A DNA stretch of 42,168 nucleotides. Source: Psammoneis japonica (Eukaryota). The stretch lies in the NCBI GenBank assembly GCA_008632985.1, contig QPGO01000138.1, positions 186,001 through 228,168 on the forward strand. Reading direction: 5' to 3'. The notes beneath the pieces are model-generated. The model was not told the origin of the DNA. It saw only the letters and a list, made by a program, of their open reading frames with translations, and made no database searches. This document shows, one piece after another, positions 8,410 to 42,168 of this stretch (positions are counted from its first letter, which is position 1; every line of letters starts with the position of its first letter). The translations under genes were made by a program, and so were the position numbers.

Positions 8410-9850
8410 AAGCCGTCAATGTCCTTGGCCTGTTTCTTGTTGGCTTGTCTGTGGAGCAGTCATTTCATGAAGACAACCTGATCTGTCAAGTGTGACTGAC
8501 AATTCATCAAAAACAAAATGTGTGGCCAGCGGCAAAAGCAGCTCATCCTGTGCTGAAAATCCTCTCTTTCAAATGGCCGCTCTCTCCCATCTGTTTCGAC
8601 ACGAAAGCCGTGCTGTGTGGAGGCAGGCCACATCTCTTTGCATGTGACAGGATTGCCACACACACAAAATGTCCTTTTTTTGTTTCTGGCCTGTTCCAGC
8701 TCCAGGTGCTCCGCGCGGGTTCGATTCCCATCATTTGGCAATTTGTGCATTTGGCGCAATTGACTTTTTCCAAATCCGTTTTTTGCCAAATCGAAGGGCA
8801 AGTGTACACTTTGCATGCATTTTTGGGTGTGCACTCACCTTTCGATTTTCGAAACGATCAAAATTGAAGGAGTCAATTGCGCTAAACTTCGCAGAAAATC
8901 GGCCTCTCGCATGATGAAAAGCGGATCACCTGGAGCTGGAGCAGGCCTTCTCTGTCACATTTTCAAAGGCTGCAAGCGCAAAATTGAGTGGGACGGCATT
9001 GTGGCAAGAAGTGACAGAATTGCTGCACACACAAAATGTCCTTTTTTGTTTCTCAGCCACATTTTCGAAGGCTGCAAGCACAAAATTGGCTGAGTGGCGG
9101 TGACAGCCAAAGTCAGCTTGTGCGTGCCATGCCGCCCATGGCAAAAAGTGTGCTTTTCTCACTCATTTCACAACTGGCAAGAGGCAAAATTGCCAGCTTC
9201 AATTTTGTCATTGGAGCCTTGAACAGATTCCAAAACACTGAGCTGCAGCATGACTCTGCGCTGCTTGTCTTTGTCACCCACCATGCTTGGCAGCCCAGCT
9301 TGCAGCCAATGTTGTTGCTTTCACAGAAACTTTCCCCAGATGTGATTGTTGAGCCACACTCTGGCTGTGCTGGCAGAGGGGTGGATGGGAGGGAGTGCCG
9401 AATGCCCCCGCCAAATTTTTGGGTGTCGCCGCTTGCAGCAAGAGCCGCAGCGGCAGCAGTGCATTTCTTGTGCGGCAATCAATGCGGCACACACAGACAG
9501 CCACTGCAGTTGCACCCAAATTGGCATGGAGGGTGCTGACCTGGTGAAAAGCATCTAAAAACAGAGCTGGAGAGGGGCCAAGAAAAATGCACGCGATGCT
9601 CTGCTTTTGCTTTTTTGCAGCAGGCTTGCTGCCGGCTGAATTTTGTGCGAGCTTGGCTGGGAGAGAGAAGACGAGGTGCCTGCCATCACAACCTGGCTGT
9701 CCAAACTTGTGACTCTTCTGCTGCGACCTTCTTTCCATTCAAAGTCTCGTTGCAATTACGCAAGCAGCGCTCTCTGCAGGCCGACTGTGGCTGTTGTCAT
9801 GGCACAGTGCGCTTCTCCAACAACTGCGAAAACATGGCATGGGGCCCACA
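8410..9850. repeat. TpA-depleted repeat block 1
   Basis: Only a handful of TA by eye; contains the MITE family A copy and an internal direct repeat (about 8640-8990 vs 9010-9090). Confidence 0.85.
8688..8947. mobile_element. MITE family A, copy 1 (260 bp, about 24-bp TIR, 4-bp TSD TTCT)
   Basis: Left end GGCCTGTTCCAGCTCCAGGTGCTC, right end GATCACCTGGAGCTGGAGCAGGCC, flanked by ttct/ttct. An empty-site paralogue at about 9045-9070 has a single ttct. A second copy lies at 20622-20881. Confidence 0.9.
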
Positions 9851-10160
9851 ACGAGGAATCATATTATTATCCAGTGTTTAATAAAATTATTAGCCTAACT
9901 TGCCAACTCAACGGAAATCGCGGATGGTTCGGTGCGTTTTTTCCCGCCATTTTTTTTCCCGGGCCAGGGGCCGACAGTCCAAGGAAAGATCTAATCAGGA
10001 AATCACCTGTCCTGTATTCAACTATTTTAGTATCCATGTCGGCGGAATCCGACGTGTCAAGCAATCTGAAATCGAAATCAACCAGTCAACTTGCACTCCA
10101 TCGAGGTGAGAAGAGGCGGCGACGCGCTTGAGAACAGTTAGTCAACACGTTCCGCAGATC

Positions 10161-11049
10161 ATGGTAGACACAGCGGAACTTTCCGAAGACAGTGGCTACG
10201 AGATGGGTGAGCCTCAACTGAGTGAGTATGAGAAACAACGACTCGAACGGATTGCACGGAATAAAGAGTACTTGAAGAGCATCGGACTGGAACCAATCGC
10301 AACGCCAAAGCCGAAACCAAAAAAGAAAAAGCGTCCCACGATAGTCGACCTTACACCGAGTCGCAAATCGAAGCGGCTCCAAAAGGACAACGAGTCGCTT
10401 GTCAAGCTGTCATATGAAAATGACGATGATACCAAATGCGTCTCTCAAGACATTGGACATGATTTTGCAGAAGAACAAGAAGCGGAAAAGCCCAGGCAAT
10501 ACGAACATAGAAAAGCAGTATCTGTGAATCTCGAAGAGTGGCAGCTATCGAAGGAACAGAACGAATCTTTGAAGCAGAGCTTTCGTGAGAGTGTTGGCGA
10601 CCACTACTTGCTCAAGATGAAGGTGCGCTAAGTCTATTATTGTTTTTCAACTCTATTCATTTTCAGCTCACACTTCTCCCTTTTCAATACAGGAATTTCT
10701 CTTGAAGCACGACAACAAACGCGGAATCTCAAAAGAAAACGCAAGAAGAGTGATTAATACAATCAAGAAGTTGGCTCGTGGGGAAGGCATTCGATACGAG
10801 TCCAAACAGTACGGATGGCCAACCGGTTGCTACTTTCAGAAAGGCAACCCCATTACGCCGCTTTCAGATATTCCAGCGCTCATGGTTGAAGCCCAGGAGT
10901 GCGAAAATGAGTGGGGAAGAGACAGGGGCAATGGATGGTTGTTGAAGCATCCTTTGATGAAGCTCCTGTTGTTTCAGCAATTCGTGCTGACTTATCCGGA
11001 GTTTCTCAAGGCAGAGTGCCAGTTAAGCAAGGAAGAGCAGGAGTTGTAA
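10161..11049 (+). CDS. Hypothetical nuclear protein; exons 10161-10622 and 10693-11049
   Basis: LSEYEKQRLERIARNKEYLKSIGL helix (a motif type seen at the N-termini of WDR76/CDCA7-like proteins), Lys-rich NLS-like stretch, in-frame GT...ACAG intron. Start codon uncertain. Confidence 0.7.
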
Positions 11050-11471
11050 GAAAAATGAGTCTATGTGTTTTATTTGTTATTAGGGCGTTATCCTTTAACT
11101 GCTCGTCAATGATGTTTAAGATAGAAAGACCGGGAATAGGTCACCTCAGCCAAGTATGCAAGTTTTTGTTCAATGGGAGCTTTCATGAATCCTTTTCCAT
11201 GGGATCTCGGATGAAAACTTACAGAGGCTTCCTTCCTCTAGCTCTTTAGATCGCGTCTAGAACACTCTCTACAAGTGAAACTGGGGTTCCTCAGACACTA
11301 AGAAGCAATGCAGCAACCAATGCAAAAGTGCAAGGACTAAGTTTTCAGATGTTGACGATTGAAATCGTGGCCATTCGTCAGTCAACTCAAATCACGGGTG
11401 CTGAAAGGTAGAGAGCATTCGAAATGTCGAAAAGTGCCCGGCTCGTTTTGCTTGAGTTCATCTACTAGAAT

Positions 11472-12832
11472 TTAATCCACATCGTCGTAATCGGCGGCGG
11501 ATCCAACTTCATTTGAAGCAGACGGTGCTGGAAGCGCCAGAACTTTCTCTTGCCCCCCAAGACTGTTCGCAACCATGGCATCACTGCTTCCCTCTTTTGT
11601 ACCCTCTTCATCACGCCGAAGATACTGTACGCATTCATTGATTCGTTCCGACACATCTTCATGCTCCTCCACCATGTCGGCCCATTTCAAAATGACATAG
11701 ACACGCTGCAGTCTCAGTCTTTCTCGCGACTTCCGTCCCGTGGCGCACAAGAGCAAAATAGATTCGACAAGAAAGAGCCTTGTCAAATGGTCTGGCTCAC
11801 GCACCTTGTCGGGGCCCTCCAACCACAAATCGGGATCCAAACCACGCTTTTCATCCACATCAAGCTCTTCTGGTCCGGCGAGTGGGTACAAAATGTGCTT
11901 GACAATCTTTACTTCCTCAATGAGCCACCACGCCGAATCCGATTCCAAACAGCAATTCTTGACGACACCCGCAATACTCCGTCTTCGTAGTACATTTGTC
12001 GATCGTAACTGAGTCAAAATGGCTTGCAACACAGAAGACGACGACAATTTTCCCTTGTCCTGTTGATGAATTCGTAAAACAAATCGTCGACCAGCCTCCA
12101 ATTGAGTTGCATTCATAAGGACGGATGCAAAGTGTTGGTAAGGATCGTAATGACTGCTAGCGAGATCGAGCTCTGTTTTCAACTCCGATTCTGGAATTTC
12201 TTCTATATACTGATCCGATAAAAATCGTGACAAGAGTAGCTCCATGGTTGGTTTGGTGGGTAACGCCTTGTCGTTTCCCTGCGACGACGGCACAGCCTCG
12301 TCGGGGAGGGTACGCCCCGTCAATTCCACCGCACCACGTTCGGTCCTCGTCATGTTTACCAAGAGAGCCATGGCAAAATTGACTCGCTTTTTCCAATTCT
12401 CAAGCGTTTCACCTTCGTCGTCGTCGGGTCGTGACAGTGTGATTTCCACCATGCGTCCGGTTGCGCCGCTGCTGAGCAAGTCTTCCACACATTGGGCGGC
12501 ACTCGGACCGTGCGACGACAAGTGAACCAAGCATGTGAGAGAGTTGAGTCCTGCGGTATCAGGATGGGAGGATAATTTTGCTAGAGGAGCAACCACTCCG
12601 TGCTGTATCATTTTGGCCATGCCGTCACTGTGAAATGAATAAAATACACACGTTTGTGAGTTGCACTTTTAATGCACCAGCTGGGAAAATGTTCTTTGAG
12701 AAAACTCAGCACGTACATGTCCTTGACTGCCATGGCAGCTTCGGTCGCAGCTAACCGAAGATCCTCTCGATCCGATGTTAAGAACCCAATCAAATCGGTG
12801 TACACTGATGCTTCATCTTGACCGGCAGACAT
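11472..12832 (-). CDS. HGH1: HGH1 homolog (FAM203, DUF383/DUF384; eEF2 chaperone); exons 12832-12717 and 12627-11472
   Basis: Motifs LLVNMTR, HFASVLMNATQLEAGRRF, RRRSIAGVVKNCC, ILYPLAGPEE, REPD, LLLCAT..SRERLR...VYVIL. GTACGT...TCACAG intron 12716-12628 is in frame. Confidence 0.9.
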
Positions 12833-12859
12833 GGTGACTAATTGTTCATAAGGCTATCG

Positions 12860-14960
12860 AGGCGCAACGGCGGAAAAGTGAGACGCACCTCTTCTCGTCC
12901 CACTTTCCACTTTTTTTGAAAATCTGAGTGGCCTCCGTGCGTTGTTTTCCCCCGGCAGCCACGCGCGACAGCGCGCGGTGACGACTGAAGGCCATGGTGC
13001 CTGATGGTGCTCTCAAACTCGGTAAACCGTGCTGCTGCTTCTGTGCCAAGCTGTTGTCCGCGAAGCAGCGAGCGCTCTCCAATCTCTCAACACTTTTGAA
13101 GGAAGCTCTGCAGGGAGTGCATTGGCATGGTTTGCAAGAGTGGCAGTTGTCGATGAATCGAACTCTCAAAACATGATGTGGGGCGCTGGCTGGTGTGCAG
13201 GCAGGCGGAGGTGGTGCCCACAAGAGCGGAGAGAGTGCATGCAAAAATGTGTCTTGGGAGATTTTCATGTGGCAAAAATGAACATTTCAACAAGATCTGA
13301 GCTTCAAAATTTGGCAGCAAATCTCTGACAGCAATTCCCAGCTGATCATCATGCAGCCACAGACAAAGCCACACAAACACAACGTTCTCACAGTTGAGAC
13401 GGCTGTGGCAACAACATGATTGAAGCAACAAACGGCAAATTTTTTTCTTGGGTGTGGCAACACAAAACAAAAAAACAGAGGGGGGGGTGCACACTTGAGT
13501 GGGATCTTGCTCATGGCTGAAACACAGTTGCAAGTCAAGGCACAGCAGACAGATGGTCTTGACTCTCCATCTGCTTCACCCCCAAAGACCAAAGATTGTC
13601 TGAGAGACAGGCCTCTTGACAGGGGGCACGCAAGCTCAGAGGAGATGAGATGGCTGTGGCAACAAGATTGAAGCAACAAACAGCCATTTTTCCCCTGGGT
13701 GTCGGAACACAAAACAAAAGAACAGGGGGGGTGCACACTCAAATGGGGTTTTGCTCATGGCTGAAACACAGTTGCAAGTCAAGGCACAGCAGACAGATGG
13801 TCTTGACTCTGCCTCTGCCTCGCCCCCAAAGATTGTCTGAGAGACAGGCTTCTTGACAGGGGGTGCACAAGCTCAGAGGAGATGATGAGAGATCCCCCTC
13901 TGCATCTGCTTGGTCAGGTGACAAACACAAGTGACAAACAAGCCCCCCATTGCCAACCCTGACTCTCACAGCAGCTGCGCTCAAAGGAGCAATTTGTGGG
14001 GGGCTGGGAGAGATGGTGCATGCCTGGCTTTGTAACCTGCACTTGGAGAGCATCTCCAAGTCATGGGTGCAAGAACAGAGCTGATGGTGCATTTTAGAAC
14101 AACAAGTGTGCAGCGGTCACATGCTGGCTGCATGAGAAAGAATGTGCCTCAGCTCTGTCTTCTCAAACACATTGAGATGGATGGGCAACGAGAGCTCAAA
14201 ACCTTGAGAATTGAGTGCCAGGTGGGAAGAAAAATGTCAAGAGCTTGAGACAGAGCACAGGATTTAGCGCCTCTGGAGTGCCAAGGCAGGTGCAATTGCT
14301 CAGTTGACTGCTGTTCCAGACCAAAGGATGCCTGTTGCAAGAGCAGCAATGCAGCCAGCTCTTGACAGAGCCATCGTGTGAGATTGCCAGCTGCTTGGCA
14401 CTGACAGGCACATCAAAGTCAGCATCAAGAAGATCCCAGATGTCCAACAAGCGGATCATGGTCAGATTTATTTTGAGGGAGATGAGCCTGTCTGATGTCC
14501 ACAGCAACTGACACTCCCCAGTGTGGCTTTCCATTTAAAGCTCCAGCCTGCTCCACCGAAGTTGACCTGAGCATGATGTGCACCCATGTGGGTGGTTTCT
14601 GCAGTGCCCTTGGCACACACCACTTCTTGCACCACAAACTTGCCAGTGTGTGACTGATGGTCATTTTCTGGTTGTGGCTGCACTTGAGGTGATGGTTCAT
14701 GATGAATCACATGACCTCGCTGATGTTGAGAGGGCAGTGCCCATCTGTGTGTTCATTAAGAGATGCAGAAGCATGGCAATGGCCATCAAGATCACTGCTC
14801 AGAAGCTGCTAATTTGTGTGCTGGAAACACAATTGACGAACCCGTCAAAGAAGCACACGAACAAACGGAACATCTCACCTCTTGCCGATTCATTGCCGCG
14901 CCGAAAATTTTGACCTGCGAGAACAATTGTCACGTCTCAACCATGTGTCGGGACACGAGA
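12860..14960. repeat. TpA-depleted repeat block 2
   Basis: Fewer than about 10 TA in about 2.1 kb by eye; spurious Tyr-free ORFs on both strands. Confidence 0.85.
13401..13890. repeat. Tandem duplication, unit about 250 bp (13401-13651 and 13652-13890)
   Basis: Both units start ggctgtggcaacaa and share gctcatggctgaaacacagttgcaagtcaaggcacagcagacagatggtcttgactct and caagctcagaggagatga. Confidence 0.9.
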
Positions 14961-15111
14961 GTCCCAATTCAAATAGAGTCTTTTTAACAAGTGATAAAAA
15001 ATGATTGCTACTTTACTGCGGTTAATGCAAAGCAGAGTTGTGACGAGAAACGGAGACAACAGCCAACAAACAGAAAAGATGGTGCAAAACCAATTGTTGA
15101 GCTCAGACCGG

Positions 15112-18100
15112 TCAAGCGGTCATATGGACGTCGTTCGATCGTTTCATAGGGGTTAGACGAGATGCCAGTCCCATGCTTGCCTGTCGTTGAGGCCGACCAC
15201 TGGCATTTAATCGCTCCTCAGCTTCGATACTCTCCTCTCCTTTGATTTCAGTCGATAGCGTACCCGGCGCTTCCTTTTCTGGGTTAACCTCAGATTGGGG
15301 AGCTCTCTCATTTGCGCCATTGTTTTGAAATGGATATTCGATCTCTTCTTGGTTCTGCTTACGTCGCTTGCGGTAAAAGTACCAGCCAAACAAGGCAGCC
15401 AAGACAGCAACAACGCCCAAGACAACACCGATAATGATTCCAGTGTTGCTGCTGCTGTCATCAGCAGTGTCGATTGGTGCATTGGTGGGTGCAACATTCG
15501 GTGCATTGGTGGGTGATATTGGTTCTTCTTCTATTGTGCCACTTTCGACGACCACATCTGTCCCGACCTCAGATTCGGCATCAACTGATGCCTGCATCGC
15601 GGGAAAATCTAAAAGGCTTTCCCTTTGTTCAGCAATTACTTCAGCGGAATCTGGGGCAAGTCCCGAAAAGACCGCTCTTCCAGCAAAAGGCACAGTCACC
15701 ATATCTTGCAACTCACGGCGGTCGGCTTCCTCGGTAAGAAGTATAATGTGTGTCAAGTTGCTGAACTCTGTGACCAGTCTACTGAACAGATAATCCCCTA
15801 TGACCGCTGTCAGCGCCACCCTATTTAAATCTTCTGCTGAAATCGTCAGAGTAAAGTTCTCAAGAAGAACCGTGCTATTCACTCCGTCAACAGTCTCTTG
15901 AGTTACAAGTGGCGGAGATGGCTCCGAAGGAGACGTCAACAGTCCGCATCCAATCCTAGTTCCATCCTGGGCATGCACAACCACGGCACGCCCAACATTT
16001 TCCCCGTAAGAAGTACCTGCGTCAATTGGAAAGCTCGTGGTTGGATTGCCATCCGCAGTGCTACCGAAAGTGATGTTAGGAGGGATATTCCAAGGATCCG
16101 GAACCGCACCAGGACCGGTATCTGGCTCCCAGAAGTGGTCTAGCACCAGACTTTCCTCATCGCAAATAAAGCCTCTGTGGATACGAACATCACAATTGAT
16201 GCAGCTTGATTCGACGTCATTGAGATCCAGCATCAAGAGGAGGTCCTGTGAGAGGGTAATGAAGGTGTCGTCAAAGTTGTGATTTGTTGTAACCGTACCG
16301 CCCACATTCAGCGGGCCTGTGTAGCCAGGGAATCTTCCTACTTGAGCGACCAACGTATCCCCCGGTGTCACAATTGTGCATCCTTCGATTTCACGGTCGC
16401 CAATATCGGCGTCGAGAGACAAAAGGTTAGGGTCATCCGACAAGAAAGGAGCAAAATAGCCGTCGCGGTTCAATTCGGGTATAGCTGCAGGAGACAGTGA
16501 GTCCCAATTAGCACATACAGTGGCATCTTGTTCCTCCAGAGCAACGAGCCACGCGCTCGAGAGGTCATCCAGGCTAAACAGGTCATCTACATCCTCTTCG
16601 GAGCCGCCAAACAGTCGCACAATGTCTGACGTAAAGTTTCCGATGCCTCCCGCAGTGTTGATGGGAACAACCAGCTCGCATCCCATCGCACGCATGGCTT
16701 GAGCTGGGACCGCGTCGACCCAGCCACCAAAAGAAATTGAACCATCGCTGATGGGTACCCCAGCGGAAAGGATGGGTTCAGCGGGAGATCGTATGAGAGC
16801 ATCAAACCAGCGTGTCTCTCCAAGTTGTAAGAACCGTTGGGACTTCACATCCGAGAATCGAGCCTTGACTTCGCTTTCAATTTCTGGAGTCCCGGCAAAG
16901 TAACCAAAGCTCATGTCATCCCAAGAAACATCAAAAGACACATTATCACCATTCCTGTAATCAGTTATTGCTGTCTCCCAGACAGCAGCAGAGTTGCCTC
17001 GCACAACAGACGTAGCTATTAGAGTCGGAATTTTTCCGCCAACCACGTCAGTCAAGCGATTCTCAAAAGTTTCTAGAAACGCGGTAATATTGGCTACCCG
17101 AAATCATACAGTCGAGTGGAGGGTTAGACATGCGAGAGCGCCATTGCACGAAGAGGAAATGCCCGTCGACTTACAAGGTTGTCAGGATCGGTGCTGGCGA
17201 TTTCGGTGAAGTTAACGTCGTTCTGTACGAAGTCAAAGAAAACTTTGCTTTGAAAAAATGTCTGGCAGTTCATTCCATTTGAAGTTGATATGCCTTCAAA
17301 AGCTCTATAATCGAGTCCGCGAGTAGGTAGAGCACACTCATCCAAGAGTCGTTCCCAGTCATCCAGGTTGGTGGCACCATAGCCTGCATAGAAGCGCGCC
17401 TGCAAAGACTCTGGTTTGTGAGACAGATAATGCGTGAAGGTAAACCAACTAAGGTCGACCTATTACTACTTACCACAATATCCAGGAGAATCGAAATCCC
17501 CCGAAAGCTCAGAAGGCCCGGGCGCAGCACATTTAACGGTCCGGAAATTTGAAAGCTTGGAACGACATTCTCTCTAAGGTCATTGAAATGAAATTGAGGG
17601 TCTGGAGAATTTATCAGAAGCTGAAGGATTTCGTCATTGAGAAGTGTGGCAATGCTAAGAGAGACAGAGATCGCCCGATCGAAGACATTACTGGTCTCAC
17701 TGTCAAAAATTGCAACCAAATCTTCAATGGCTTGAGTTCGTTGATTCGGGATAATCAATCTTAGCGGGATTCCCGTTCTCACGGCTTCTTCCAGTATATC
17801 CCGAAGAACATTCCCGATAACCTCTTCGAGCGTGAATAGTGTGTCTGGAAGTCCTATGAAAGACTTGAGCATGAAAGCAAGACGAGCACGTCGTTCCTCC
17901 TCCGTGCACTCACGTGATCCGAATAATCTATTTGAGCAGGTTTCGACTCGAGGGTTAAGTGCCATGCTTTCGTACATCCATGAAGAAATAGTTCCGGAGG
18001 AAGCTCCAACAAGCCCTTCAATTGGTCCGAGTTCCTCAACAACTTGCGCTATAAATGCAAAGAGAAAGGAAACGACATGGCGAATAAAAATTGAGATAAG

Positions 18101-18458: not shown

Positions 18459-19207
18459 CGTCTTGGCTGATAATTTCCTTTTTTGAAGAACGTTTCTTGT
18501 TGTTCTCAAAGCCGCTTCAGGTGCACTAATTTTCTCGATACGGATGATCTCTGATTTGTGAATTGCAAAGAGAGCGTTTGCGATTGAGAGGAGCCCCAGA
18601 GCTTACTTATCTTCACTAAACCAATGTTTCACTACGCGCAACCTGCAACCCTGCTTCTCGAACGATTTCTGGGCTTCGGTCGTCGGTCGCGAGTCCCCAA
18701 AGCTCCCAAGTTTCCCGCGTTGTTAGTCGTGGGTTCGGTGCATGACGTCAGACAAATCGCAGCAGTCGTACGTACAGTCCGAAGTCATCAGTTCGCTTCC
18801 GTGAAAGAAGAGCAAAAACTGCATTAAAACTAACTCGCACTGCGAGGAGGCAACAGAGCTGTGCAACTTGAAGCCATTGTAATCTGCTCATGACCAACAA
18901 CTGCTCGAAGTGCCTTTGAATCAGTGCCTGGCACTGCCAACTGATCGGCCAAGGCAACGTGGGTCATGTGCGCCACGCTGACACCCATGCTCTCCAGTGC
19001 ATTCCAGAGGAAAAGCAAAGATTTCTGTTTTCCCACAGAGATGTGTGCTTGTGCTTCATCCAATTGCAAACACTTCCACTGAACAGTTGCACAGCAGACC
19101 ACAAGCAATCTGGGTCGACTGCTGCTGTCACTCACAGCTTTGGCATGGAGAGCATTTAAAATGTTGGAGCTCTTCGTTGTTGTCGTTGGAGTTGGAGTTT
19201 TTTGTTT

Positions 19208-19314
19208 TTCATTCTTCATTCTTTGTTCTTTGTTCTTTGTTCTTCGTTCTTCATTCTTCATTCTTCATCATTGTTGTTGTTGTTGCTGTCGTTGTTGTTG
19301 TTGTTGTTGTTGTT
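19208..19314. repeat. Heptamer array TT(CA/TG/CG)TTC followed by a (TCA/TTG)n trinucleotide tract
   Basis: Units ttcattc, ttcattc, tttgttc x3, ttcgttc, ttcattc x2, then tcatcattgttgttg. Confidence 0.9.
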
Positions 19315-20599: not shown

Positions 20600-20621
20600 T
20601 GTTGTTGTTGTTGTTGTTGTT

Positions 20622-20881: not shown

Positions 20882-20894
20882 TGTTGTTGTTGTT

Positions 20895-20925
<31 letters not shown>

Positions 20926-21020
20926 TTGCTGTTGCTGTTGCTCTTGTTGTTCTTGCTGCTCTTGTTGTTGTTCTTGTTGTTGCTCTTGTTGTTGTTGCTG
21001 CTGTTGCTGTTGTTTTGTTG
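20882..21020. repeat. (TTG/CTG/TTC)n trinucleotide microsatellite
   Basis: tgttgttgt...gctgctgttg...ctcttgttgttcttgctgct; source of the spurious poly-Q, poly-L and poly-N ORFs. Confidence 0.95.
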
Positions 21021-31800: not shown

Positions 31801-32150
31801 TCATGACCATGTGCAAAAAGAGCAAGCCAGCACCAGAGGGGCAGTCGTCCTTCTTCTTCTTGCTTGGCTGAACTTTCGGAATCTCCCAATGAACTTTCTG
31901 GCAGTCATTTCACCTGGCTTTTTCGTGGATTGTTGCATGTGCCATTTCTGTTTCTGAATGGGTCTGAGAGGGAAAACATGTTCAGAGGTGACTGCGCAAT
32001 CATCCATGAGAGCAGTGATGCGAGGTCGTCTCGAGGAAACAACAAACCGCGAATCATCCTCGCGCATCTGTCCGTTTGGTCGCTCTCCCCACGAATTTTT
32101 TTGGAATTTTGTCGAAAACCGCGGCCGCATTGAAGTGTGACGCAGACCTT
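28900..32150. repeat. TpA-depleted block 5
   Basis: Between about 29070 and 32150 I find only two TA (about 30669 and 31716); TA returns abruptly at about 32154 (ccgtatcgaatagacgtaga). Confidence 0.9.
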
Positions 32151-32299
32151 CCGTATCGAATAGACGTAGATTTCTACAGGGAATTGAGTTTTCAAAAAAT
32201 CGGCACTTCTGATGCGATAACGGTATTTTGCTGATTGCCCTCGACGGTTTATGTTGCTGTTATTCATTGTTGTTTTTCTTGTCACGACCTTTATACACC

Positions 32300-34797
32300 A
32301 TGTCTGAACCCAATAAGGCGCAAGAGATTAACCTGTTATTGTCAGAACAGAATGTGAATATGTGGAAACTCCGAGAAATGGCCTTGACCGAGGGAGGTCT
32401 CATGAATGGTATGTTGTGTTTCGTTGTTTTGAAGTTTTTCTGTGCACCCGCGTGCACGAACCATCTCTCATCCGCTGTCGTTGCTTTGCGTAGATACCAT
32501 TCGAAAAAGGGCTTGGCCCAAGCTTGTGGGGCTGCATAGTGAAGAAACAGCATCGGATCATCCTCAACAGTCCTTATACGACGAACTCTACACGTTGCAA
32601 GCGGAACGCAAATCGCTTCCCGAAATTATCGATGATTCTACTTCCTTGACACCCACCAATTTACAAGAATTCAATCAAGCCAGCAAGGGGAAAGACAAAA
32701 AGCTTGAATCACTGTAAGTTTCAGAGGGCGGAAGTATGCTTCTGTTGTTGTTCATGTGTTGTTTTATTCAACTTCCCCCCCTCTCTTTTCCTTAGCAAAT
32801 CCCAATCGCAACAACAACGAAACAATGCTGTTGTAGAAAGTTTGGATGCCGATCAGATTCAACGCGACGTGGCCCGCTGTACGTGGCACCTCTTGACGGG
32901 CTCGCAACGGTCCCGCCGGTTGCAAATGAAAAACAAGTCCAAAAAGCGAATTGCTTCTCTTCTTTTGAAAAAACAGAGGCGATTGGCCGACTTGATAAAT
33001 TTGACCTTGGTGCGGAGCTACATGCACCACGCGTCGTCCGAGGAACGATTGCATTATTATCAAGGATATCATGATGTCGCGTGCATTTTCTTATCGGCCT
33101 TGGGTGGCGGTGGGAGTGGACCACTACTAGCACAAGAAGAAAAGACAAAAACACCCATGGATACCAAGGCCCAAGCCATGGGATTGGATTTGCCGTCGCG
33201 TGTCTTGCTGCAAATCTCGGAAAACCATTTACGAGATGTCATGCGCAGCAGCTTTATGCAACTCCAAGCAGCGCTCCGGCTTGTCTTGTTTCCACTGATT
33301 GGCGTGTTTGATGCCCAGGTGCACTCGTTTCTGTGGGATTGTGAGATGGAGCCCTACTTTGCCTTGAGTTGGGTCATCACGTGGTAACTTTCGCCTGCAA
33401 GTGCATTTCTGTCTCTTGTGGGGGGTCAAAGTCTAACTATTTTTTGCATCAATGATTCATAGGTTCAGTCACGACGTCCGGGACACGACGCTCGTCAAGC
33501 GCTTGTTTGATGTCTTTGTGGCGAGTCATCCACTTTTTCCCATCTACATGAGTGTCGCCATGGTGACGCATCCAACCAATCGAGCAGATGTGTTGCGTGC
33601 AGATTGGGGAGACTTTTCGGCTGTTCACCAGACGCTGGTGGGACTGCCGAAAAACTCGTGCTCCGTGGGATGGAAGTACAGTGTGGGGGATGGGTACATT
33701 TCGGGCGATGAAGAAGAGGATGATACAACGACGCGGAGTACGGATAACATGGAGGTATTGTCGGAGGAAATGGGACGAGACGATGGTGGCGGCAGTCAGA
33801 GCATGATATCTTCCGACTTGATGCATGTTGGGGCCAATACACGAGTTCCGTTTCAAGAGATTATTGACTTGGCCATTACATATATGTGAGTTTGAATCGC
33901 ATCGTTGATTTTAAGTCGTTGTTTGTTTCCATGTATCTCATTTGTTGTTTTGTTTCTCTATTTCTGCTAGGCGCCGAATCCCTCCATGCAATCTCTTGCG
34001 ACTAGCGCAACGCTACCACACTCAAGACGATTCTTTGTTGTCCAACACGTCGTCCATTGCGCTCTTGCAGCCTCCACCGAGTTGGGCCCTGGCCTTGGTG
34101 GCACCGTCGGATTGGATCTTGAAGCAACGGGCACGAGAAAGCCACGGCATGTCGGCCACGAGCCGCAAGGACCGAAAAAAGCGACCGTCGCAACAAGAAT
34201 CCAACGTCAAAGTGTTGCTACAGAGGAAAGTGACGTTGATGTGTATTTGCAGGAACACAAGAATTCCATTGCCGTGATTGCGGCCGGTTTGGACCCGGAG
34301 ACGAAAAGGAGAGGCGATGGAAGCGCCAAAAGAAGCTCTTGGTACGAGTAAGCGTCGCGGTTGTCGTGGTTGCAATTGCGTACGGCGTGGCGATGCAATA
34401 CCGTCCTGCACTGGAAGCCGCTTCCCCGCAGCAAGAACGACCAAAGAGACAAGAACAAACGAAAATCAAAGAGCCAACAAAAATCAAAGAGCGAACGTTG
34501 GTAAAGAACGCAACGAAACCCGCCAGCAAGAGAGCACCTGAAAAGTTGACACGACCCGCCGCCCAACCCATGACACAACCCAGACGTCCTATTGAAGTTG
34601 CGGTCCGTCCAGTGGTTGAGAAGAGTCGTCCACAGCAACATGTCGTGGAGAAAAAAGACGGAGCTAGGTCGAAAGCTCGTGAGATTCTATTGGAAGTCGT
34701 TCTTCGATTCGGAAGCGCCGTTCTCAAATTCTCCCGCGCCTTCTTTTGGGACGTGTCGCCCTTTGGATTGTATCAAAAGTATCAACAGCAGCATTAA
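32300..34797 (+). CDS. TBC1D20: TBC1D20/Gyp8-like Rab GTPase-activating protein with a C-terminal TM segment; exons 32300-32408, 32494-32713, 32796-33383, 33463-33885, 33971-34797 (last exon has apparent frameshifts)
   Basis: LREMALTEGGLMNDTIRKRAWPKL, QIQRDVARC, LHYYQGYHDVA, YFALSWVITWFSHD, RLFDVFVASHPLFPIY; canonical GT-AG introns. Confidence 0.88.
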
Positions 34798-37132: not shown

Positions 37133-38700
37133 GGGATTCGGATTCGCATTTTTTTTATTTTCACTCCCGAGTTTCGAGGTCGCGGATTTTCGTGGGACTC
37201 AAGGCTGGCTCATGCGTGACTCAGGGCCCATTTAATTCCCCGACTCCTCACTCATTGCAGGATGGAACCATGCGCAGAAAACACAGCCATGACTCCAGCA
37301 GTTAGGGTGTGACTACTCGTCACACGGGCAGTCGAGGTGAAAGTTGATGATGGCGGCAAGGCAATCGAATGAAAGAACAAAACTCAGGGTTGCTCTTTGG
37401 CGGGTCCGAATTGGGCTGCAGCACAGCCAAAGTGCGCTGTGTCAATTCGACAGACAGCCACATTTCTTTCAATGAAAGACAGAGTTCCAGAAATTTACAG
37501 AAGGCATTGAACATTCTTCCTCTGCAAAAGCAAAGCCTGCAAATTTCCCTTTGTGCCAAGCTTGGACACCACAGCCATCACAAGCAGAGTGTCTCAGGTC
37601 CACGAAAGAACCCACACCACGGAAAGCACGACACATGCCGCCCACTTGTGTTGTGCTTCAGCACCCACATCATCTTTGCCATTGTCTGTCACTCCACCCC
37701 ATTCATAGAACAGATTGCTGGTCAGGCTCTCCTTGAATGCTGCTCCCTGAAATCTCGTTCAAATGCACTGGTGTGGACGACATTTGGTGTGCCGTCTTGA
37801 GTTGCTGCCTGAGTTCATTGCTCACTGCAACTGATGCTTGCACATTCATGATGCAAAGAAGCTGGTTGCTCATCATTTGACTTCTGATGTGACTGGAAAC
37901 TCTTGATGATCTTGGTGCTCCCAGCTGTGCGTGCTGTTGGCTGCAACAGTCGTTTCTCTTGGGATTCGGACTCGCATTTTGATTTGTCACTCCCGAGTGT
38001 CGAGGTCGCGGATTTTTTCGTGGGACTCAACGCTGGTTCATGTGTGTGCAGGATGGAACCATGTGCAGAAAATGTTGGCAAAAGCCACTGATGAGTCTCA
38101 CCACATGGGCATTCGAGGTGAAAGTCGACGATGGCGGCAAGGTGACGAACGAAAGAACAAAACTCAGGGTCTTTAGCCAATCAGAAGTGGACCGTGGTCC
38201 AGAGTGCATTGTGTTGACATTCAACAGACGATCGTGGTTTTTTCAATGAAAGACAGAGGCCCAGAAATTGACAAAAAGCATTGAACATTCTTTCTCTACG
38301 AACAAAAAGCCTGCTGATTTCCTTCAATGCCAAGCTTGGACAAACCAAAAGCACCTCGGATCCGATGATGGAATCTGCATCCCGGAAACCGCCACGCATG
38401 CCCTCCCCTAGAGTGTTTGCACTTCAGCACCCATGTCATCTTTGCCCTCATCCGTCGCTCCATCCCGTTTGCGGAGTTGATTGCTGGACAACTCTCCCAA
38501 CCAGCTGCATCCAACAGCAGTTTCTTTTCAATGCACGTGCACTCTAGATGGCTGAAATCACACTCAAATGCTCCAGCTGGCAGACATGGCATCGAACGCA
38601 TCATCTGAGAGCCAGGACACACCGTCTCGAGTTGCTGCCTGAATGCATTGCACACCACAACTGCCGCTGGCATCTCATGAAGCAAAGAAGCTGGTTGCTC
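37133..38700. repeat. Diverged tandem duplication, period about 828 bp (37133-37871 and 37961-38700)
   Basis: Shared anchors gggattcgga..cgcatttt, cactcccgagt.tcgaggtcgcggatttt, gcaggatggaaccatg, gaaagaacaaaactcagggt, gccaagcttgga, gcaaagaagctggttgctc. Confidence 0.9.
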
Positions 38701-39120
38701 TCAATTGACTTCCCTTGTCTGTGGCTGACCGCAAGAAAGACTTGATGTTTTTTCGTACACTTCCATCCCCTTGTAGAACCAATCCGGTTCTTGCAGTTGA
38801 TCTCCCTCAGCACAGAGCTTCACAATGCCTGCTCTGAATTCAGGGGGATTGCGAAGAGCCGGAGCCGATCCGTTGGATGCAAAGAAATCCAGTTCCAACA
38901 CTGTCTTGCCCTTGCTCACTTTTTCTTCTTGAGTGATCCTTAAAATCTCCTTCATGATTGGGACAAAGTTCGCAGTGACAAATGAAAAGATCATGCGCTG
39001 CGTGCCCGTGGTTGCTTTCTTGAATGTTCTGTTGGCTGGATCACAAATCGTTTTGTGTGCTTTCCAATCAGCTGCCTGCGCAAGAGCGAATGCAACCACA
39101 CCACGTGAGACCATCATGCT
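38570..39120 (-). pseudogene. Decayed MYND zinc-finger protein gene
   Basis: MMVSRGVVAFALAQAADWKAHKTIC matches the MYND C-terminal Q..DWK.HK..C pattern with upstream Cys ligands lost; it is followed by a plausible globular region (VLELDFF...APALRNPPEF...EPDWFYKG) and then frameshifts. Confidence 0.65.
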
Positions 39121-42100
39121 TGCCTCACAATCGATCTAAATGGAGTTTCAACAAACCTGGCAGTCTCTGGAACAGTGGAATGCTGCTTTGCATCGGCTGT
39201 TCCAAAACCGATTGCAACAATCACATCGCACATTGAACATGACAGAGAAGGAAATGTTGAGTGGATTGACCAAACACTGTGATGACACATCAACAGCATT
39301 GACAAAAATGGTGCTTGCCCGCATGTTGTCATGCCCATTTACTCAGATTTGCTGCAACAACAACAAGATTTTGCAATTGCCTGTGAGTTGGCCATGGTGG
39401 CCATGATGGCCTGAATGTTGTGGAGATGGATCATGACATGATTGTCCCAGCTTCCCTTGTGCCCATCTTTCCCCAATGATCTCCAACAAAATGTCACCCA
39501 CATGATGAGCACCTCACTTGAATTTCTTCTGCATTGATGATGTGCATTTCATGAGTTGATCCATCATTGCAAGGTGGCCCACAAGCACTTTTGAGTGAGG
39601 GCCCAGTTGTGCAATGCATCTGCCAAAATGGCCAGTCTGCAAATGACAAGGTCAAGCTAAAGTTGTTGACAATGCTTGGCACTGCTTTGGTCATCTCTGG
39701 ACATGGCAAACCAGTCCTTGGCAGAGCACAGGCTAAAAACTTGGCTGACACAGAGAGCAAGTTGCTCTTCAAAACAAGGTCAACAATGACAAATTGCACC
39801 ATGCTCAGAACTGGAGTTTCTCTGGCATCTCTTGATCATGTTTTGCTCACACCCTTGTTTTGACCCAGCATTTGGTTTTAACCAAGAGTGACAAATTTAT
39901 GTGGCAATGGCTCGTCAATTGACCCAGCTGTTTTGGACCCACTTGGCAACACACATCTTTGGCGGCATTCATGGCAACATTGCTCAACAGCCAATGCACC
40001 TTGACTGGAGACTCTCAGTGATCTTGATGCTCCTGACCACCTGTGTTTGACTGCAACAGTTTTTTCTGAGATCTGTCATTGTCCTTGTCCAGCGGAGTCA
40101 AATCAATGGATGGCATGCCAGCCAGAACAAATGCACTTGCTCCCACTTCCATCATGATGTCCACCTGTCATCCACCTGGAAGCCATGCTCTAAAGCAACT
40201 TTTCTCCATGACACAGTGTTCTTGATGGTTGTGAAATTGTGAGACTGTGCTGGGAATTTGTCAATGGCATGATGTTTTTGTTGAAACCTTGATGCTCAAG
40301 CTGAAAATGAAACTGTTGTTCAGATTTTGCTGGGACAAAAAACACAAAAAAATTCACACAGTGCACAAGAGCAGCAAAAGTCAGTCATGATGCATTTGAG
40401 GAGCAGCCACAAATCTGATTTGTTCTTCTGAGTCATGCTGTGTGGCCGGCAGTGGCTTTGCCAAATCTCATTCTGATCAAAGCTCTGCTGCATCTGTCGC
40501 TTTTTAAATTTGCTTGTTCATTCATTTGTTTGTCAAACAAATGACACAAACACCCCAGAGACATTTCTTGAGCTCGCCAAAGGAGAGAAAACAAAATGTT
40601 GTGCGCTGGTTGCCATTTTTGCCTCATTCACCCATGTGTCTGACAAGAGACATGAAGCCCTCTGCTCAACAAGGGCAGTCATCAATGAGAAAGCAGTTCA
40701 AGATGACAAGCAGCACACACTTGCTGGCTCTTTTCTTTTTTGTTTGTGGCGATTTTGTGGTGGATCAGCAAATGACAATGAACGTGGCAAGATGGAAGAT
40801 GCAGAAAACATTCTCTCTGATGCCAGTTGTGCTTGAGCACACCAGACCATTTTCTGGTGAGAAGAGACTGTTCATTTGCACACAAGAAACCAAGGGCAAA
40901 AATTGGCTTGATCAGGAACACAACTTCAATGAAAACAACAATTTTTGAAATCACTCATTTGCAAATTTTCATGACATTCAGGTGTCCACAATGCTTCCTC
41001 CTCCACAGCACCAAAAAGAATCAAACACAAAAACATTGAAACCCAAGAGACATTGAGGCAGTGGTGCAATGGACCAGGTGAGCAACTGTGCAGAATGTCT
41101 GAGACCACAAAACTTGCACAAAGTTGGCAGCTGACACCTCATTGTCCAGCACTCATTGAAAAGCAAGCTCAATGCATGAAATGGCTGGCAATGATCAGAT
41201 TTCATTGATGTCTCCTCTTTCTCTTCAACCCTTTTTTTGTCAATCTTCCAAGTCCTGCAAAAAGCTGAAGAAAACAGTTTTCAAAATGGCTCTGAGCCTC
41301 AGTGGCAGGTGCTTGCCGTGTTCTCATGCAGCCAAGCAATCACAAATTAATGGATGCTCCAAGCACCATTGCAGTCAGGCTGAAATTCTTTCAACTGCAT
41401 TTTAATTTGTTGACTCAGCAACATCCACTGACCCCCGACCCCCAACTCAGATTTGTGTTCATTCTCAACAATGTCTCTCCTTGTCAAAGTTGTCAAGTCC
41501 TGTTTCCAGTTTCCACGTGTGCAAGTTCTGTGGTCTGTGGCAAGGGACAAACAAAGCTGGCATTTCCCAGTTCCCCAACAAAGCTCAAGCTGTGCATTTG
41601 ATGATGTCCCCATCTGTTGCAAACAATGACCTGTCATGTGTGCACTTCTGACCCATGAGATTTGCACCCAATTGCAGTGTTGTTGCATGGTGTGTGTTTG
41701 CATTCTGACTCATGATGACAGCTTTCTGCTCCATGGAGAAAAATGTCACCAGCTCACATGGCAGTCCTTTGTCTGCAATGAGACTTTGTCATGACCTGAG
41801 TGCCAGTGGGTCAGGTGATGTTGTTGGGGGCAAGAGTTCAGGCAACTTGTGGCTGAATGCAGCAAAATGGCCTGCCCACTCTTCTTGGCATTGGGGGGGG
41901 GCATTCTCAGTTTTTTTTTTGTTGGAGTTGAAACTGCACAACATGATGATGCTGAGAAGCTTGCATGTGCACCTGACAGAAAAACACACTGTGTGCCAAA
42001 AATGAAACTCTCTAAGTTGTCCATTGATGGCATCTCCATTGTGTGTGTGCTGACAAATGACTGTGCTGGGTGGGGCGACCAAGTCACAGCGGCTGCAACC

Positions 42101-42168
42101 ACTCACCCTTGTCCCATTTTGAAAATGCAATTGCTGACCATGCATTTCTGTCATCTCTTTGATGTCGT

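Follow-up and report, generated by a model that had tools for sequence, protein, structure and literature searches.

TA-poor non-genic blocks in a diatom genome that look mutated from TpA to TpG and CpA, a signature previously reported from Bigelowiella natans

RIP, as known from fungi, is a C-to-T process that mostly converts CpA into TpA and enriches TpA. In animals, APOBEC acts on DNA and gives C-to-T or G-to-A changes, and ADAR acts on double-stranded RNA with a preference for a 5' U. Mettrop et al. (bioRxiv, 10.64898/2026.01.13.699255) reported a TpA-to-TpG/CpA hypermutation of integrated viral DNA in the chlorarachniophyte Bigelowiella natans (Rhizaria), the signature of which was measured directly in mutation-accumulation lines. 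In two viral inserts, 230 of 231 de novo mutations were A>G or T>C, and all GC-biased mutations fell on TpA according to the text of the preprint. The changes occurred in place, in integrated DNA; only particular inserts were affected, and these in some lines only. The B. natans genome of about 95 Mb contains 124 clusters that are poor in TpA and rich in CpA+TpG. The authors favour adenine deamination and put forward an ADAT2-like candidate. CpG methylation of LTR elements is known from diatoms (PMC2806351).

The DNA considered here, referred to as the window, is a stretch of 42,168 bp whose gene homologies indicate a raphid pennate diatom (Stramenopila), so that the fungal framing of a first-pass annotation of the same DNA (RIP, a sexual cycle, CTAAC branch points) had to be abandoned. 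The statement in that annotation that no system of this kind had been described is superseded by the B. natans preprint, which reports the same signature. We suggest that silent, non-genic diatom DNA has probably been mutated in place from TA to TG or CA by a process of the same kind as that of B. natans.

Extent, composition and surroundings of the blocks

Six TA-poor non-genic blocks make up 16,762 of the 42,168 bp of the window. Their limits, set from TA gaps, lie close to those first proposed for them.

8410-9756, no strand: TA-erased block 1, with TA gaps and sharp edges; carries one copy of a 272-bp MITE-like element
12856-14973, no strand: TA-erased block 2, with TA gaps and sharp edges; internal tandem duplication of about 250 bp
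18881-22272, no strand: TA-erased block 3; part of a high-copy repeat, MITE-like copy 2 and (TTG)n microsatellites
23790-25585, no strand: TA-erased block 4; copy of the high-copy repeat of block 3
28899-32153, no strand: TA-erased block 5; 3 TA in 3255 bp
37315-42168, no strand: TA-erased block 6; begins within a tandem duplication and continues past the window end, where its limit is open

Over these 16,762 bp, only 59 TA are present (observed/expected ratio, o/e, 0.05), along with 380 CG (o/e 0.40), while TG (o/e 1.72) and CA (o/e 1.81) are abundant. Outside the blocks, TA is ordinary, as had been noted for genes and introns: o/e is 0.50 in the long ORFs (19,901 bp; CG 0.98) and 0.61 in the non-ORF rest (5,505 bp of introns, UTRs and short spacers; CG 1.08). 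With slightly wider first limits the blocks held 76 TA, against a mean of 1162 (sd 24, minimum 1086) in 1000 mononucleotide shuffles. The longest TA-free gap spans 1602 bp (29067-30669), and a single gap of this length has a chance of about 3e-25 if TA is as frequent as outside the blocks; a further gap of 1010 bp lies in block 2 (13023-14033), and block 4 is the least TA-depleted of the six. Each edge is confined to one 100-bp bin; at 22272, TA rises from 0 to 11 per 100 bp. A raised GpC and a loss of CpG went unmentioned in the first-pass annotation. The CpG loss varies along the blocks, with o/e between 0.04 and 0.9 in 500-bp stretches; TA stays near zero all along, even where CpG o/e reaches 0.8-0.9 and directly inside the block edges.

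The reading frames of the blocks are distorted as first described. In 134 stop-to-stop ORFs of at least 70 amino acids, Tyr accounts for 0.1%, Cys for 6.4%, His for 5.2%, Gln for 6.0%, Trp for 2.1% and Met for 2.5% of the residues, and the stop trinucleotides of the blocks, counted on both strands, are 855 TGA, 68 TAA and 41 TAG. These long, Tyr-free and TGA-ended pseudo-ORFs would arise because TAA and TAG stops and Tyr codons are destroyed. Among the 134 ORFs, no credible match to a TE or viral protein domain, no reverse transcriptase and no relatives were found.

Repeats are present in at least four of the blocks. Block 2 contains a tandem duplication (13392-13648 and 13643-13885, 86% identical), and a duplication of about 830 bp (37133-37884 and 37961-38712) lies at the start of block 6. 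Dispersed repeats are the following:

8677-8948, + strand: MITE-like element, copy 1, with terminal inverted repeats; in block 1
20611-20882, + strand: MITE-like element, copy 2, 91% identical to copy 1; in block 3
19313-20603, + strand: high-copy non-coding repeat segment in block 3, 73-75% identical to 24067-24638
24067-24638, + strand: high-copy non-coding repeat segment in block 4, matching 19313-20603

ORFs over the homologous DNA of the two high-copy segments run in different frames and encode unrelated proteins. The summed contig depth of run X1 reaches 1491-15699 over 19168-21168 in block 3, against about 60 in genic bins. The restriction to repeats that had been proposed is not supported by block 5: a single X1 contig of 6137 nt covers 28053-34189, no pile-up of further contigs was found at a likeness of at least 80%, and block and flanking genic bins have equal depth (60-79 over the block). 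For parts of blocks 3 and 6, likewise, extra contigs at a likeness of at least 80% were not found.

This distribution bears on the possibility that decay of TpA to TpG or CpA is untargeted and the default outside transcription units, with TA preserved in genes, introns and promoters by transcription-coupled repair, by open chromatin or by selection. The blocks would then reflect a mutational landscape and not a defence directed at repeats or foreign DNA. All six intervals between gene islands, i.e., every long spacer in the window, are affected; the block edges adjoin gene units, genic TA is low already, and both the DNA without extra contigs and the lack of TE or viral domains fit such a general decay. 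It is at odds with the 5.5 kb of gene-adjoining non-ORF DNA that retains its TA and CpG, with edges that are sharp within 100 bp instead of graded, with the repeats in at least four blocks, and with the B. natans process, which is confined to particular inserts in some lines as described in the preprint. We regard untargeted decay as possible, though on balance unlikely.

Polarity of the change

Other copies of the repeat shared by blocks 3 and 4 provide a direction. The best-supported 40 of 1070 differences between the window and run contigs at least 80% like it include 23 variants listed at 23707-25130; 11 of these make TA from a TG or CA of the window, and the reverse occurs in none. In X1, the TA form accounts for more than half of the depth in seven of these 11 and for a minority in four. 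Both TA and CG also occur in the loose-end consensus sequences built from further copies. The evidence of polarity, here and in the paralogues below, is indirect.

Eight paralogue pairs within the window differ by 243 transitions and 121 transversions. CA/TG double differences number 44, against 9.2 expected under CpG decay alone (an expectation derived from 34 shared CpG and 50 half-decayed sites), and the remaining classes of adjacent double transitions number 0-10 each. The young pair of MITE-like elements has 12 shared CpG, four CG/TG or CG/CA sites, one TA/TG site, one shared TA and four CA/TG swaps, of which 0.17 would be expected.

The footprint was simulated by turning 87% of TA and 60% of CG into TG/CA in the non-block DNA of the window. 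The result correlates with the trinucleotide shifts of the blocks at r 0.93 (0.84 without trinucleotides containing TA or CG), whereas simulation of CG decay alone gives r 0.34 (0.66 without them), in keeping with the earlier argument that neither RIP nor deamination of 5-methylcytosine removes TA. Separate fits range from r 0.53 to 0.88 per block and from -0.29 to 0.33 in genic control segments; block 1 gives r 0.89 with all trinucleotides and 0.53 without those containing TA or CG. The most enriched trinucleotide is GCA/TGC (x1.93) and GpC is raised (o/e 1.28), both being by-products that conversion of GTA/TAC predicts.

Since other repeat copies, paralogue swaps, trinucleotide footprint and strand balance (see below) agree, the loss of TA looks mutational, context-specific and limited to delimited non-genic domains. 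Blocks 1, 2, 5 and 6 have few or no other copies, and it is therefore the compositional footprint alone that argues for a mutational origin there. These four blocks, which offer no direct ancestral state, together with the ORF searches that returned no relatives, leave some room for the view that the blocks never were TA-rich, being either foreign or specialised TA-free DNA or subject to selection against TA (e.g., TA-specific integration or cleavage). We consider this very improbable: copies of the block 3/4 repeat elsewhere carry TA where the window has TG or CA, the excess of swaps and the GCA/TGC and GpC by-products speak against it, blocks and genes match in G+C content (0.48 in the blocks), and such a signature was absent from every 500-bp window of 80 metagenomic control loci.

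A sequencing or assembly artefact, in which a modified TpA base in heterochromatin is systematically miscalled, is hardly credible. A Logan contig of run X1, 6137 nt long, agrees with block 5 and its flanking DNA in all but 19 letters; as a check against miscalled bases this is not fully independent, since the runs possibly derive from the sample that was assembled, and their library type is not on record. A miscall would not yield fixed, copy-specific TG or CA states in paralogues, leaves the co-located CpG decay unexplained, and does not account for residual TAs that obey a clean context model.

Strand symmetry, sequence context and candidate chemistry

TG and CA counts are balanced and interspersed in all six blocks (runs test, z -1.7 to +1.05); therefore, both DNA strands are hit, as the first-pass annotation had inferred. 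The TA surviving in ten NTAN classes is fitted by a model in which the strands are hit independently (goodness of fit, p 0.75). The dose depends on the base after A (T 2.9, C 1.6, G 1.0, A 0.33), and this context model, whose denominators are genic DNA standing in for ancestral sequence, is better than a flat rate (p 8e-15); a second estimate gives the same order.

Editing at the level of RNA, i.e., A-to-I editing of retroelement transcripts at UA by an ADAR- or ADAT-like enzyme followed by reverse transcription and insertion of the mutated copy, would agree with the preference of ADAR-type editing for U before the edited A (see the discussion in 10.64898/2026.01.13.699255). Editing of the sense strand should, however, leave TG without CA, while the two are balanced and randomly interleaved in every block. 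In addition, a MITE-like DNA element and DNA without other copies are affected, the CA/TG swaps between element copies are those expected of independent decay after insertion, the block ORFs yielded no reverse transcriptase, and the B. natans changes arise in integrated DNA, as reported in the preprint. We thus hold this route to be extremely unlikely.

At the level of sequence, the footprint, its polarity, strand symmetry and context dependence, and the sharp edges are demonstrated. Under the explanation that we prefer, mutation in place, the blocks would consist of pennate diatom spacer DNA, transposon relics included, in which A-to-G changes on either strand convert a TA step to TG or CA. 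Conversion would proceed site by site, about equally on both strands and up to sharp domain edges, with a preference for a pyrimidine after A (TAT > TAC > TAG > TAA) and at a rate per site much faster than that of methyl-CpG decay. The CpG decay suggests that the blocks are cytosine-methylated; a methylated or heterochromatic state is inferred for them, and the process may represent a defence.

As to the chemistry, an ADAT2/TadA-like adenine deaminase acting on DNA is our leading guess, a tentative one that we rate somewhat below even chances, because the natural tRNA site of these enzymes, U33-A34, is a TA step. No candidate enzyme was found in the window, in agreement with the first-pass annotation. 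Alternatively, the T of the TpA might be mutated instead of the A: a modified thymine (5-hydroxymethyluracil or a base-J-like derivative made by a JBP/TET-type dioxygenase) that pairs with G would give T-to-C changes. TpA is palindromic and the footprint fully strand-symmetric, so that A>G and T>C are indistinguishable from sequence, and the context order is equally readable as that of the base before T (A > G > C > T). Furthermore, 5-hydroxymethyluracil in dinoflagellates and base J in the telomere repeats of kinetoplastids are placed at the T of TpA. We know of no near-complete T-to-C conversion by modified thymines, and the one study that measured the process directly argues for deamination of adenine, naming the ADAT2-like candidate in the text of the preprint. 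We judge a modified thymine to be unlikely.

Comparison with known systems

Like APOBEC and ADAR editing in animals, the process would be a context-specific transition hypermutation of selfish DNA, and the UA context of ADAR matches; the changes in the window are, however, not the C-to-T or G-to-A changes of APOBEC. ADAR editing coupled to retrotransposition is strand-biased, whereas the window is strand-symmetric, and its MITE-like element and low-copy DNA appear to have been changed in place. With RIP the window shares non-genic or repeat blocks, an extreme dinucleotide distortion, ruined frames and sharp edges, and RIP is interpreted as a genome defence, as is proposed here. The direction is opposite, since the window loses TpA and gains CpA/TpG, and it belongs to a diatom and includes, in block 5, DNA that gave no sign of further copies. 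The likeness to methyl-CpG decay lies in the reduced CpG of the blocks, in CG/TG and CG/CA polymorphism between copies and in the products TG and CA. Such decay cannot remove TA, accounts for only nine of the 44 CA/TG swaps, and differs from the TA loss, which has run to completion at places where CpG still stands at about 0.8-0.9.

The closest counterpart is the B. natans process, as far as it is described in the preprint of Mettrop et al. (10.64898/2026.01.13.699255). Both have TpA as the dinucleotide target and TG and CA as products, a low Rho TpA with a high Rho CpA+TpG in clustered 1-kb windows, and affected sequences that are mostly unannotatable. With the B. natans thresholds, 15 of 42 1-kb windows pass and form three clusters of at least three windows; the density is thus three clusters in 42 kb against 124 in about 95 Mb. 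The degree differs as well (TA o/e 0.05 against a Rho of 0.45 in the B. natans NCLDV insert), as do the targets: viral inserts there; non-coding spacers, a MITE and a non-coding repeat without viral genes here, including DNA for which no other copies were found. CpG decay accompanies the TA loss in the window, and no mention of it was found in the available text of the preprint. De novo events were measured in B. natans, whereas the window is read, from its letters, as a long-term footprint. We consider it likely that this footprint stems from the same kind of process in another lineage, where it would be denser and nearly complete. TA-specific hypermutation has so far been reported only in one unrelated alga, and the diatom would add a second lineage.

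TA-erased blocks between diatom genes

Six non-genic stretches of the Psammoneis japonica window are almost devoid of the dinucleotide TA. Together they comprise 16,762 bp, equivalent to 40% of the window, and hold just 59 TA, which corresponds to an observed/expected ratio (o/e) of 0.05; the TA o/e is 0.50 within the long ORFs of the remaining window (19,901 bp), and 0.61 in the non-block DNA beyond these ORFs (5,505 bp of introns, UTRs and short spacers). TG (o/e 1.72) and CA (o/e 1.81) are abundant in the blocks, with values of about 1.1-1.2 in the rest of the window. The six TA-poor, TG/CA-rich blocks claimed by the first-pass annotation are thus borne out by a 500-bp scan, by the list of TA-free gaps (the longest of which measures 1602 bp) and by dinucleotide tables. 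A chance origin of the TA loss is excluded: across 1000 mononucleotide shuffles, TA counts averaged 1162 and never fell below 1086, while 76 were observed within the slightly wider boundaries initially used.

TA-erased blocks, as delimited by the 500-bp scan, the TA-free gap list and the dinucleotide tables, and the repeats that they contain
Block 1: 8410-9756, TA-erased
Block 2: 12856-14973, TA-erased
Block 3: 18881-22272, TA-erased
Block 4: 23790-25585, TA-erased
Block 5: 28899-32153, TA-erased
Block 6: 37315-42168, TA-erased, continuing past the window end
MITE-like element: 8677-8948 (block 1) and 20611-20882 (block 3), 272 bp, CpG-rich, with terminal inverted repeats about 21 bp long, 91% identity between the copies
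Non-coding repeat common to blocks 3 and 4: 19313-20603 and 24067-24638, 73-75% identity

Two further properties of the blocks do not appear in the first-pass annotation. CpG is depleted (o/e 0.40 vs 0.98-1.08 outside) in a patchy manner, with values between 0.04 and 0.9 per 500 bp of block DNA, and GpC is elevated (o/e 1.28). At the block edges, the change in TA is completed within one 100-bp bin, for instance from 0 to 11 TA per 100 bp across position 22272, and from 0 to 7 across position 32153. The first 100 bp outside several of the edges are unusually rich in TA (11 in 22273-22372, seven in 25586-25685 and seven in 32154-32253); hence, the blocks adjoin AT-rich gene ends or promoters without a transition zone.

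The 134 stop-to-stop ORFs of at least 70 amino acids found in the blocks contain 0.1% Tyr, 6.4% Cys, 5.2% His and 6.0% Gln, and stop trinucleotides on both strands of the blocks amount to 855 TGA, 68 TAA and 41 TAG, in agreement with the Tyr-poor, Cys/His/Gln-rich and TGA-ended ORFs noted previously. None of the 134 ORFs carries a credible Pfam domain, the best hits being low-complexity matches under the cut-offs; the 11 longest ORFs likewise lack a credible Pfam match, no reverse transcriptase was found by Pfam among the block ORFs, and a protein database search with one ORF of block 4 gave zero matches. Furthermore, in the stretches where blocks 3 and 4 are homologous, the ORFs occupy different frames and their proteins are unrelated. 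The blocks are non-coding, and their ORFs are therefore a by-product of the loss of TAA and TAG stops. Scans of the window for Rfam families (gathering thresholds) and tRNA genes found nothing. TA-erased DNA can be expected to yield long, TGA-ended false ORFs without Tyr, and the erasure conceals transposons from homology searches and biases both repeat annotation and gene prediction.

The VTC4-like ORF at 6320-7882 (minus strand) has 49 relatives, the best of them in raphid pennate diatoms (Amphora coffeaeformis with 78% identity, an unnamed protein with 71% and Nitzschia with 65-66%), and further ones in Seminavis, Cylindrotheca and Attheya. In the Atlas cluster nearest to the HGH1-like ORF, Bacillariophyta is the commonest taxon, which by itself is no more than a hint, and PDB matches of the uS5 fragment were uninformative as to taxon. 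A fungal framing of the window, as implied by the earlier proposal of a reversed form of RIP, is not warranted, since the VTC4-like ORF places the window in a pennate diatom, and not in a fungus, an amoebozoan or Bigelowiella.

Several other features of the genic DNA deserve mention. Two paralogous genes at 1696-3370 (plus strand) and 26091-28817 (minus strand), 24 kb apart and in opposite orientation, encode secreted-looking proteins with reprolysin-like metalloprotease domains and Dicty_CTDC Cys-rich repeats, and share a 50-nt inverted match (1872-1921 and 28046-28095); a 48-nt coding tandem repeat is present at 2933-3177. For the open frame of 647 amino acids at 15112-17055 (minus strand), which lies in a gene island with normal TA, no Pfam domain was detected, and a search of 5.8 billion proteins, confined to a range of lengths, yielded no relatives. 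In the uS5/RPS2 region at 22308-23693, contigs from public sequencing runs diverge from the window by about 0.7-1.3% (10 letters in a 1388-nt contig of run X1 and 12 in an 891-nt contig of run X2), and the depth is halved at several positions around 18590-18615, which points to either a different strain or a heterozygous diploid.

TA as the probable ancestral state

Four independent lines of evidence, all of them indirect, point to a conversion of ancestral TA to TG or CA in the blocks. Among the best-supported 40 of 1070 variants between the window and other copies, 23 fall in 23707-25130, and in 11 of these the other copies have TA where the window has TG or CA; the reverse was found in none of the 23. 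By X1 depth, the TA form is in the majority in seven of the 11 variants and in the minority in four, while the rest of the 23 consist of eight CpG-related changes (in both directions) and four of other kinds. The loose-end consensus sequences of the other repeat copies have an ordinary density of both TA and CG.

Eight aligned pairs of paralogous stretches within the window differ by 243 transitions vs 121 transversions, and 44 sites have CA in one copy and TG in the other. Such swaps arise from the independent decay of a palindromic dinucleotide in two copies. CpG decay alone would be expected to produce 9.2 of them (34 CpG are present in both copies and 50 in only one), and for the young pair of MITE-like elements, four swaps were observed vs 0.17 expected (12 shared CpG and four half-decayed sites); the remaining classes of adjacent double transitions have between zero and 10 members each. 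The excess over the CpG expectation therefore requires a second palindromic source, for which TA is the sole possibility.

The trinucleotide footprint of the blocks can be reproduced from the genic DNA of the window. When 87% of TA and 60% of CG were turned into TG or CA in silico, the simulated shifts correlated with those of the blocks with an r of 0.93, and still with an r of 0.84 when trinucleotides containing TA or CG were left out; a simulation of CpG decay only gave r values of 0.34 and 0.66, respectively. Fits of the combined model range from 0.53 to 0.88 for the individual blocks, and from -0.29 to 0.33 for six genic segments. The most strongly enriched trinucleotide, GCA/TGC (1.93-fold), is the product of GTA/TAC conversion, and this explains the raised GpC. 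The gain in TG and CA equals 7.5% of the block dinucleotides, most of which is accounted for by the missing TA (3.1%) and the missing CG (3.4%).

The other copies, the swaps and the trinucleotide footprint thus uphold the previous proposal that TpA was changed into TpG or CpA. If the blocks owed their make-up to an intrinsic composition or to selection, neither the TA-bearing copies nor the CA/TG swaps nor the by-product pattern would be accounted for, and we consider such an origin hardly credible. Much the same applies to the idea that the missing TA reflects a basecalling artefact: block 5 is reproduced in a 6137-nt contig of the public runs, which are possibly the source of the assembly itself, and the choice between TG and CA is copy-specific, so that an artefact of this type appears highly improbable.

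Strand, sequence context and pace of the erasure

Each of the six blocks contains TG and CA in balanced numbers (TG/CA counts of 143/131, 217/227, 345/339, 228/173, 358/382 and 542/526 for blocks 1-6), and the two succeed each other in random order (runs-test z from -1.7 to +1.05 across the six blocks). None of the six shows clusters of changes coordinated by strand, a pattern that a processive deaminase acting on single strands would be expected to leave. This balance and random order argue for a DNA-level process that affects either strand independently at each site, and disfavor both long strand-coordinated tracts and a route through edited sense transcripts that are then retrotransposed. 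RNA editing by ADAR- or ADAT-type enzymes coupled to retrotransposition should leave A-to-G changes solely on the transcribed strand of reverse-transcribed copies; the observed strand symmetry, the affected MITE-like element and low-copy DNA, and the absence of a reverse transcriptase among the Pfam matches all speak against this route, to which we assign a very low probability. We regard it as probable that the blocks instead represent silent domains in which TpA was hypermutated in place, at the DNA level, to TpG or CpA, a process of the same kind as that in the chlorarachniophyte Bigelowiella natans.

The 59 surviving TA are distributed non-randomly with respect to sequence context. The contexts ATAT and ATAC/GTAT, which occur 62 and 126 times, respectively, in the rest of the window, contain no survivor, while 17 survivors are found in CTAA/TTAG and 13 in TTAA. 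All ten symmetric contexts are well described (goodness of fit p 0.75) by a model in which each strand is hit independently, at a rate set by the base following the A, and this model improves on a flat rate (p 8e-15); the cumulative doses are 2.9 for T, 1.6 for C, 1.0 for G and 0.33 for A, values that are approximate as their denominators were taken from genic DNA, and the earlier block boundaries gave the same order. This rule (TAT > TAC > TAG > TAA, each strand independent) provides a fingerprint for comparison with the de novo mutations of B. natans and with candidate deaminases.

As to the chemistry, adenine deamination by an ADAT2/TadA-like enzyme acting on DNA is our leading guess, although one held tentatively. 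The natural site of such enzymes, U33-A34, is itself a TA step, and a bias toward pyrimidines in the position following the A agrees with the TadA/ADAT2 family without being diagnostic of it. The change might also start from the thymine, e.g., through a modified T that mispairs with G, since TpA is palindromic and adenine-side and thymine-side mechanisms are therefore indistinguishable by sequence. The first-pass annotation saw no responsible enzyme in the window, and the ORFs of the window show no deaminase domain.

The erasure of TA runs ahead of the decay of CpG. TA is gone where the CpG o/e is still 0.8-0.9 (e.g., at 20501-21000 and 8501-9000), and also in the first 100-200 bp inside the block edges, where CpG is still dense. 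Our reading of the counts for the pair of MITE-like elements is that roughly three in four inferred TA sites per copy have been converted, vs about one tenth of the CpG sites. Hence, TA erasure is a separate process that is, per site, much faster than methyl-CpG decay.

Copy number and relation to known systems

Copy number was judged from contigs of the public runs with at least 80% likeness to the window; these runs all stem from a single sample with no recorded library type, and are possibly those from which the assembly was made. Contigs pile up over 19168-21168 and 23170-25837, where up to 11 of them cover a single site and the summed depth reaches 650-15,700, in part owing to a (TTG)n tract. 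Microsatellites of the (TTG)n/(CAA)n type, which inflate the repeat depth of the bins containing them, are present at 19251-19345 and 20864-21030 in block 3 and at 26289-26386 in the ORF at 26091-27170. Block 5 and the gene regions on both of its sides are found on one contig of 6137 nt (28053-34189) with 19 differing letters; the depth over block 5 (about 60-79) equals that of the genic bins, and no extra contigs are present there. The covered part of block 6 and the stretch 21169-22272 of block 3 show the same single-copy-like behavior. As regards expression, blocks 3, 5 and 6 are not covered by contigs of runs X2 and X3, which speaks neither for nor against it.

Tandem duplications exist inside blocks 2 and 6. 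The heads of the 830-bp tandem units of block 6 (37133-37225 and 37961-38046, about 90 nt) are near-identical and have kept every CpG; they could be a conserved functional piece, e.g., a promoter or a small RNA. Beyond the heads, the units are only about 68% identical and differ by many CA/TG swaps; at 37706 vs 38470, a TA faces a CG, the sole, and unexplained, double difference of this type in the eight paralogue pairs. A stretch of the MITE-like element appears to resemble the conserved T-arm/B-box motif of tRNA genes, and neither ARAGORN nor Rfam detected a tRNA gene or an Rfam family in this element.

The restriction of the erasure to repeats, as originally envisioned, is not established: the MITE-like element and the high-copy repeat lie in blocks 1, 3 and 4, whereas block 5 is a single contig at genic depth. 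Either the process also reaches low-copy DNA, or older copies are now too divergent to pass the 80% threshold. With respect to foreign DNA as a possible target, the MITE-like element, the high-copy repeat and the tandem duplications stand against 134 ORFs without a credible Pfam domain and a block 5 without extra contigs. The process may instead have no such target and befall all DNA that lies outside protected transcription units, an alternative that seems to us rather unlikely.

Two known mutational processes bear comparison. Methyl-CpG decay, with its loss of CpG and gain of TpG and CpA, is evident from 50 CG/TG or CG/CA sites between paralogues; it is a second, separate process in the blocks and does not account for the loss of TA. 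The CpG methylation reported for diatom LTR elements (PMC2806351) fits this decay. Fungal RIP is a C-to-T process, mainly of CpA to TpA, that raises TpA and lowers CpA and TpG, whereas the blocks show the opposite (TpA at 0.05, CpA and TpG at 1.7-1.8); moreover, RIP acts only on duplicated sequence in fungi with RID/DIM-2, whereas the present footprint is that of a diatom and includes block 5 without extra copies.

A metagenome scan with a single VTC protein found no loci, and one with a 14-sequence alignment yielded 80 loci around VTC homologues. None of the 80, which are mostly short, gene-only or distant and thus serve as a control for the metric without informing on other diatoms, contains a 500-bp window with a TA o/e below 0.15 and TG/CA above 1.5. 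The full-text literature searched, including papers on diatom transposable elements, contained no report of TpA erasure in diatoms, and its only description of TpA hypermutation was the preprint on B. natans by Mettrop et al. (bioRxiv 10.64898/2026.01.13.699255).

The statement that no system of this kind had been described is therefore outdated, and the authors of this preprint measured directly what the first-pass annotation had proposed as its core, the change of TpA to TpG or CpA. In 15 mutation-accumulation lines, 231 of 302 nuclear single-nucleotide mutations fell in two integrated viral regions; 230 of these 231 were A>G or T>C, with all GC-biased ones on TpA according to the text, and the mutation rate in the viral regions was about 1000-fold above background in some of the lines only. 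The B. natans genome contains 124 clusters of TpA-poor, CpA- and TpG-rich 1-kb windows, and an ADAT2-like adenine deaminase was proposed (bioRxiv 10.64898/2026.01.13.699255).

For some diatoms, transformation is feasible and maps of the methylome and of chromatin exist, which would bring both the enzyme and the targeting signal within experimental reach. It is possible, rather than probable, that diatoms and chlorarachniophytes share a dedicated DNA-level TpA editor, perhaps old and widespread in SAR and most likely an adenine deaminase at silent chromatin, that marks silent domains regardless of copy number, outpaces methyl-CpG decay, prefers TAY and rewrites much of the non-genic genome. If true, this would place a second major system of mutational genome defence alongside fungal RIP, one whose chemistry runs the opposite way.

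The sole prior case is one rhizarian alga, presented in a 2026 preprint that identifies no enzyme. When the preprint's thresholds are applied to the P. japonica window, 15 of its 42 1-kb windows pass, including three runs of three (19001-22000, 29001-32000 and 39001-42000). Both products reported for B. natans, TpG and CpA from A>G and T>C at TpA, are matched here as judged from sequence comparison. The cluster density is far higher (three in 42 kb, as compared with 124 in about 95 Mb), and the TA depletion is much deeper, with an o/e of 0.05 vs a Rho of 0.45 in the B. natans NCLDV region. A near-complete footprint spanning two fifths of a window dense in genes would demonstrate that the process extends beyond one species and beyond viral inserts, and that it can shape most of the spacer DNA in an ecologically dominant group of algae. 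We class the footprint in P. japonica as TpA hypermutation in a second major lineage, in a far more advanced state than in B. natans.
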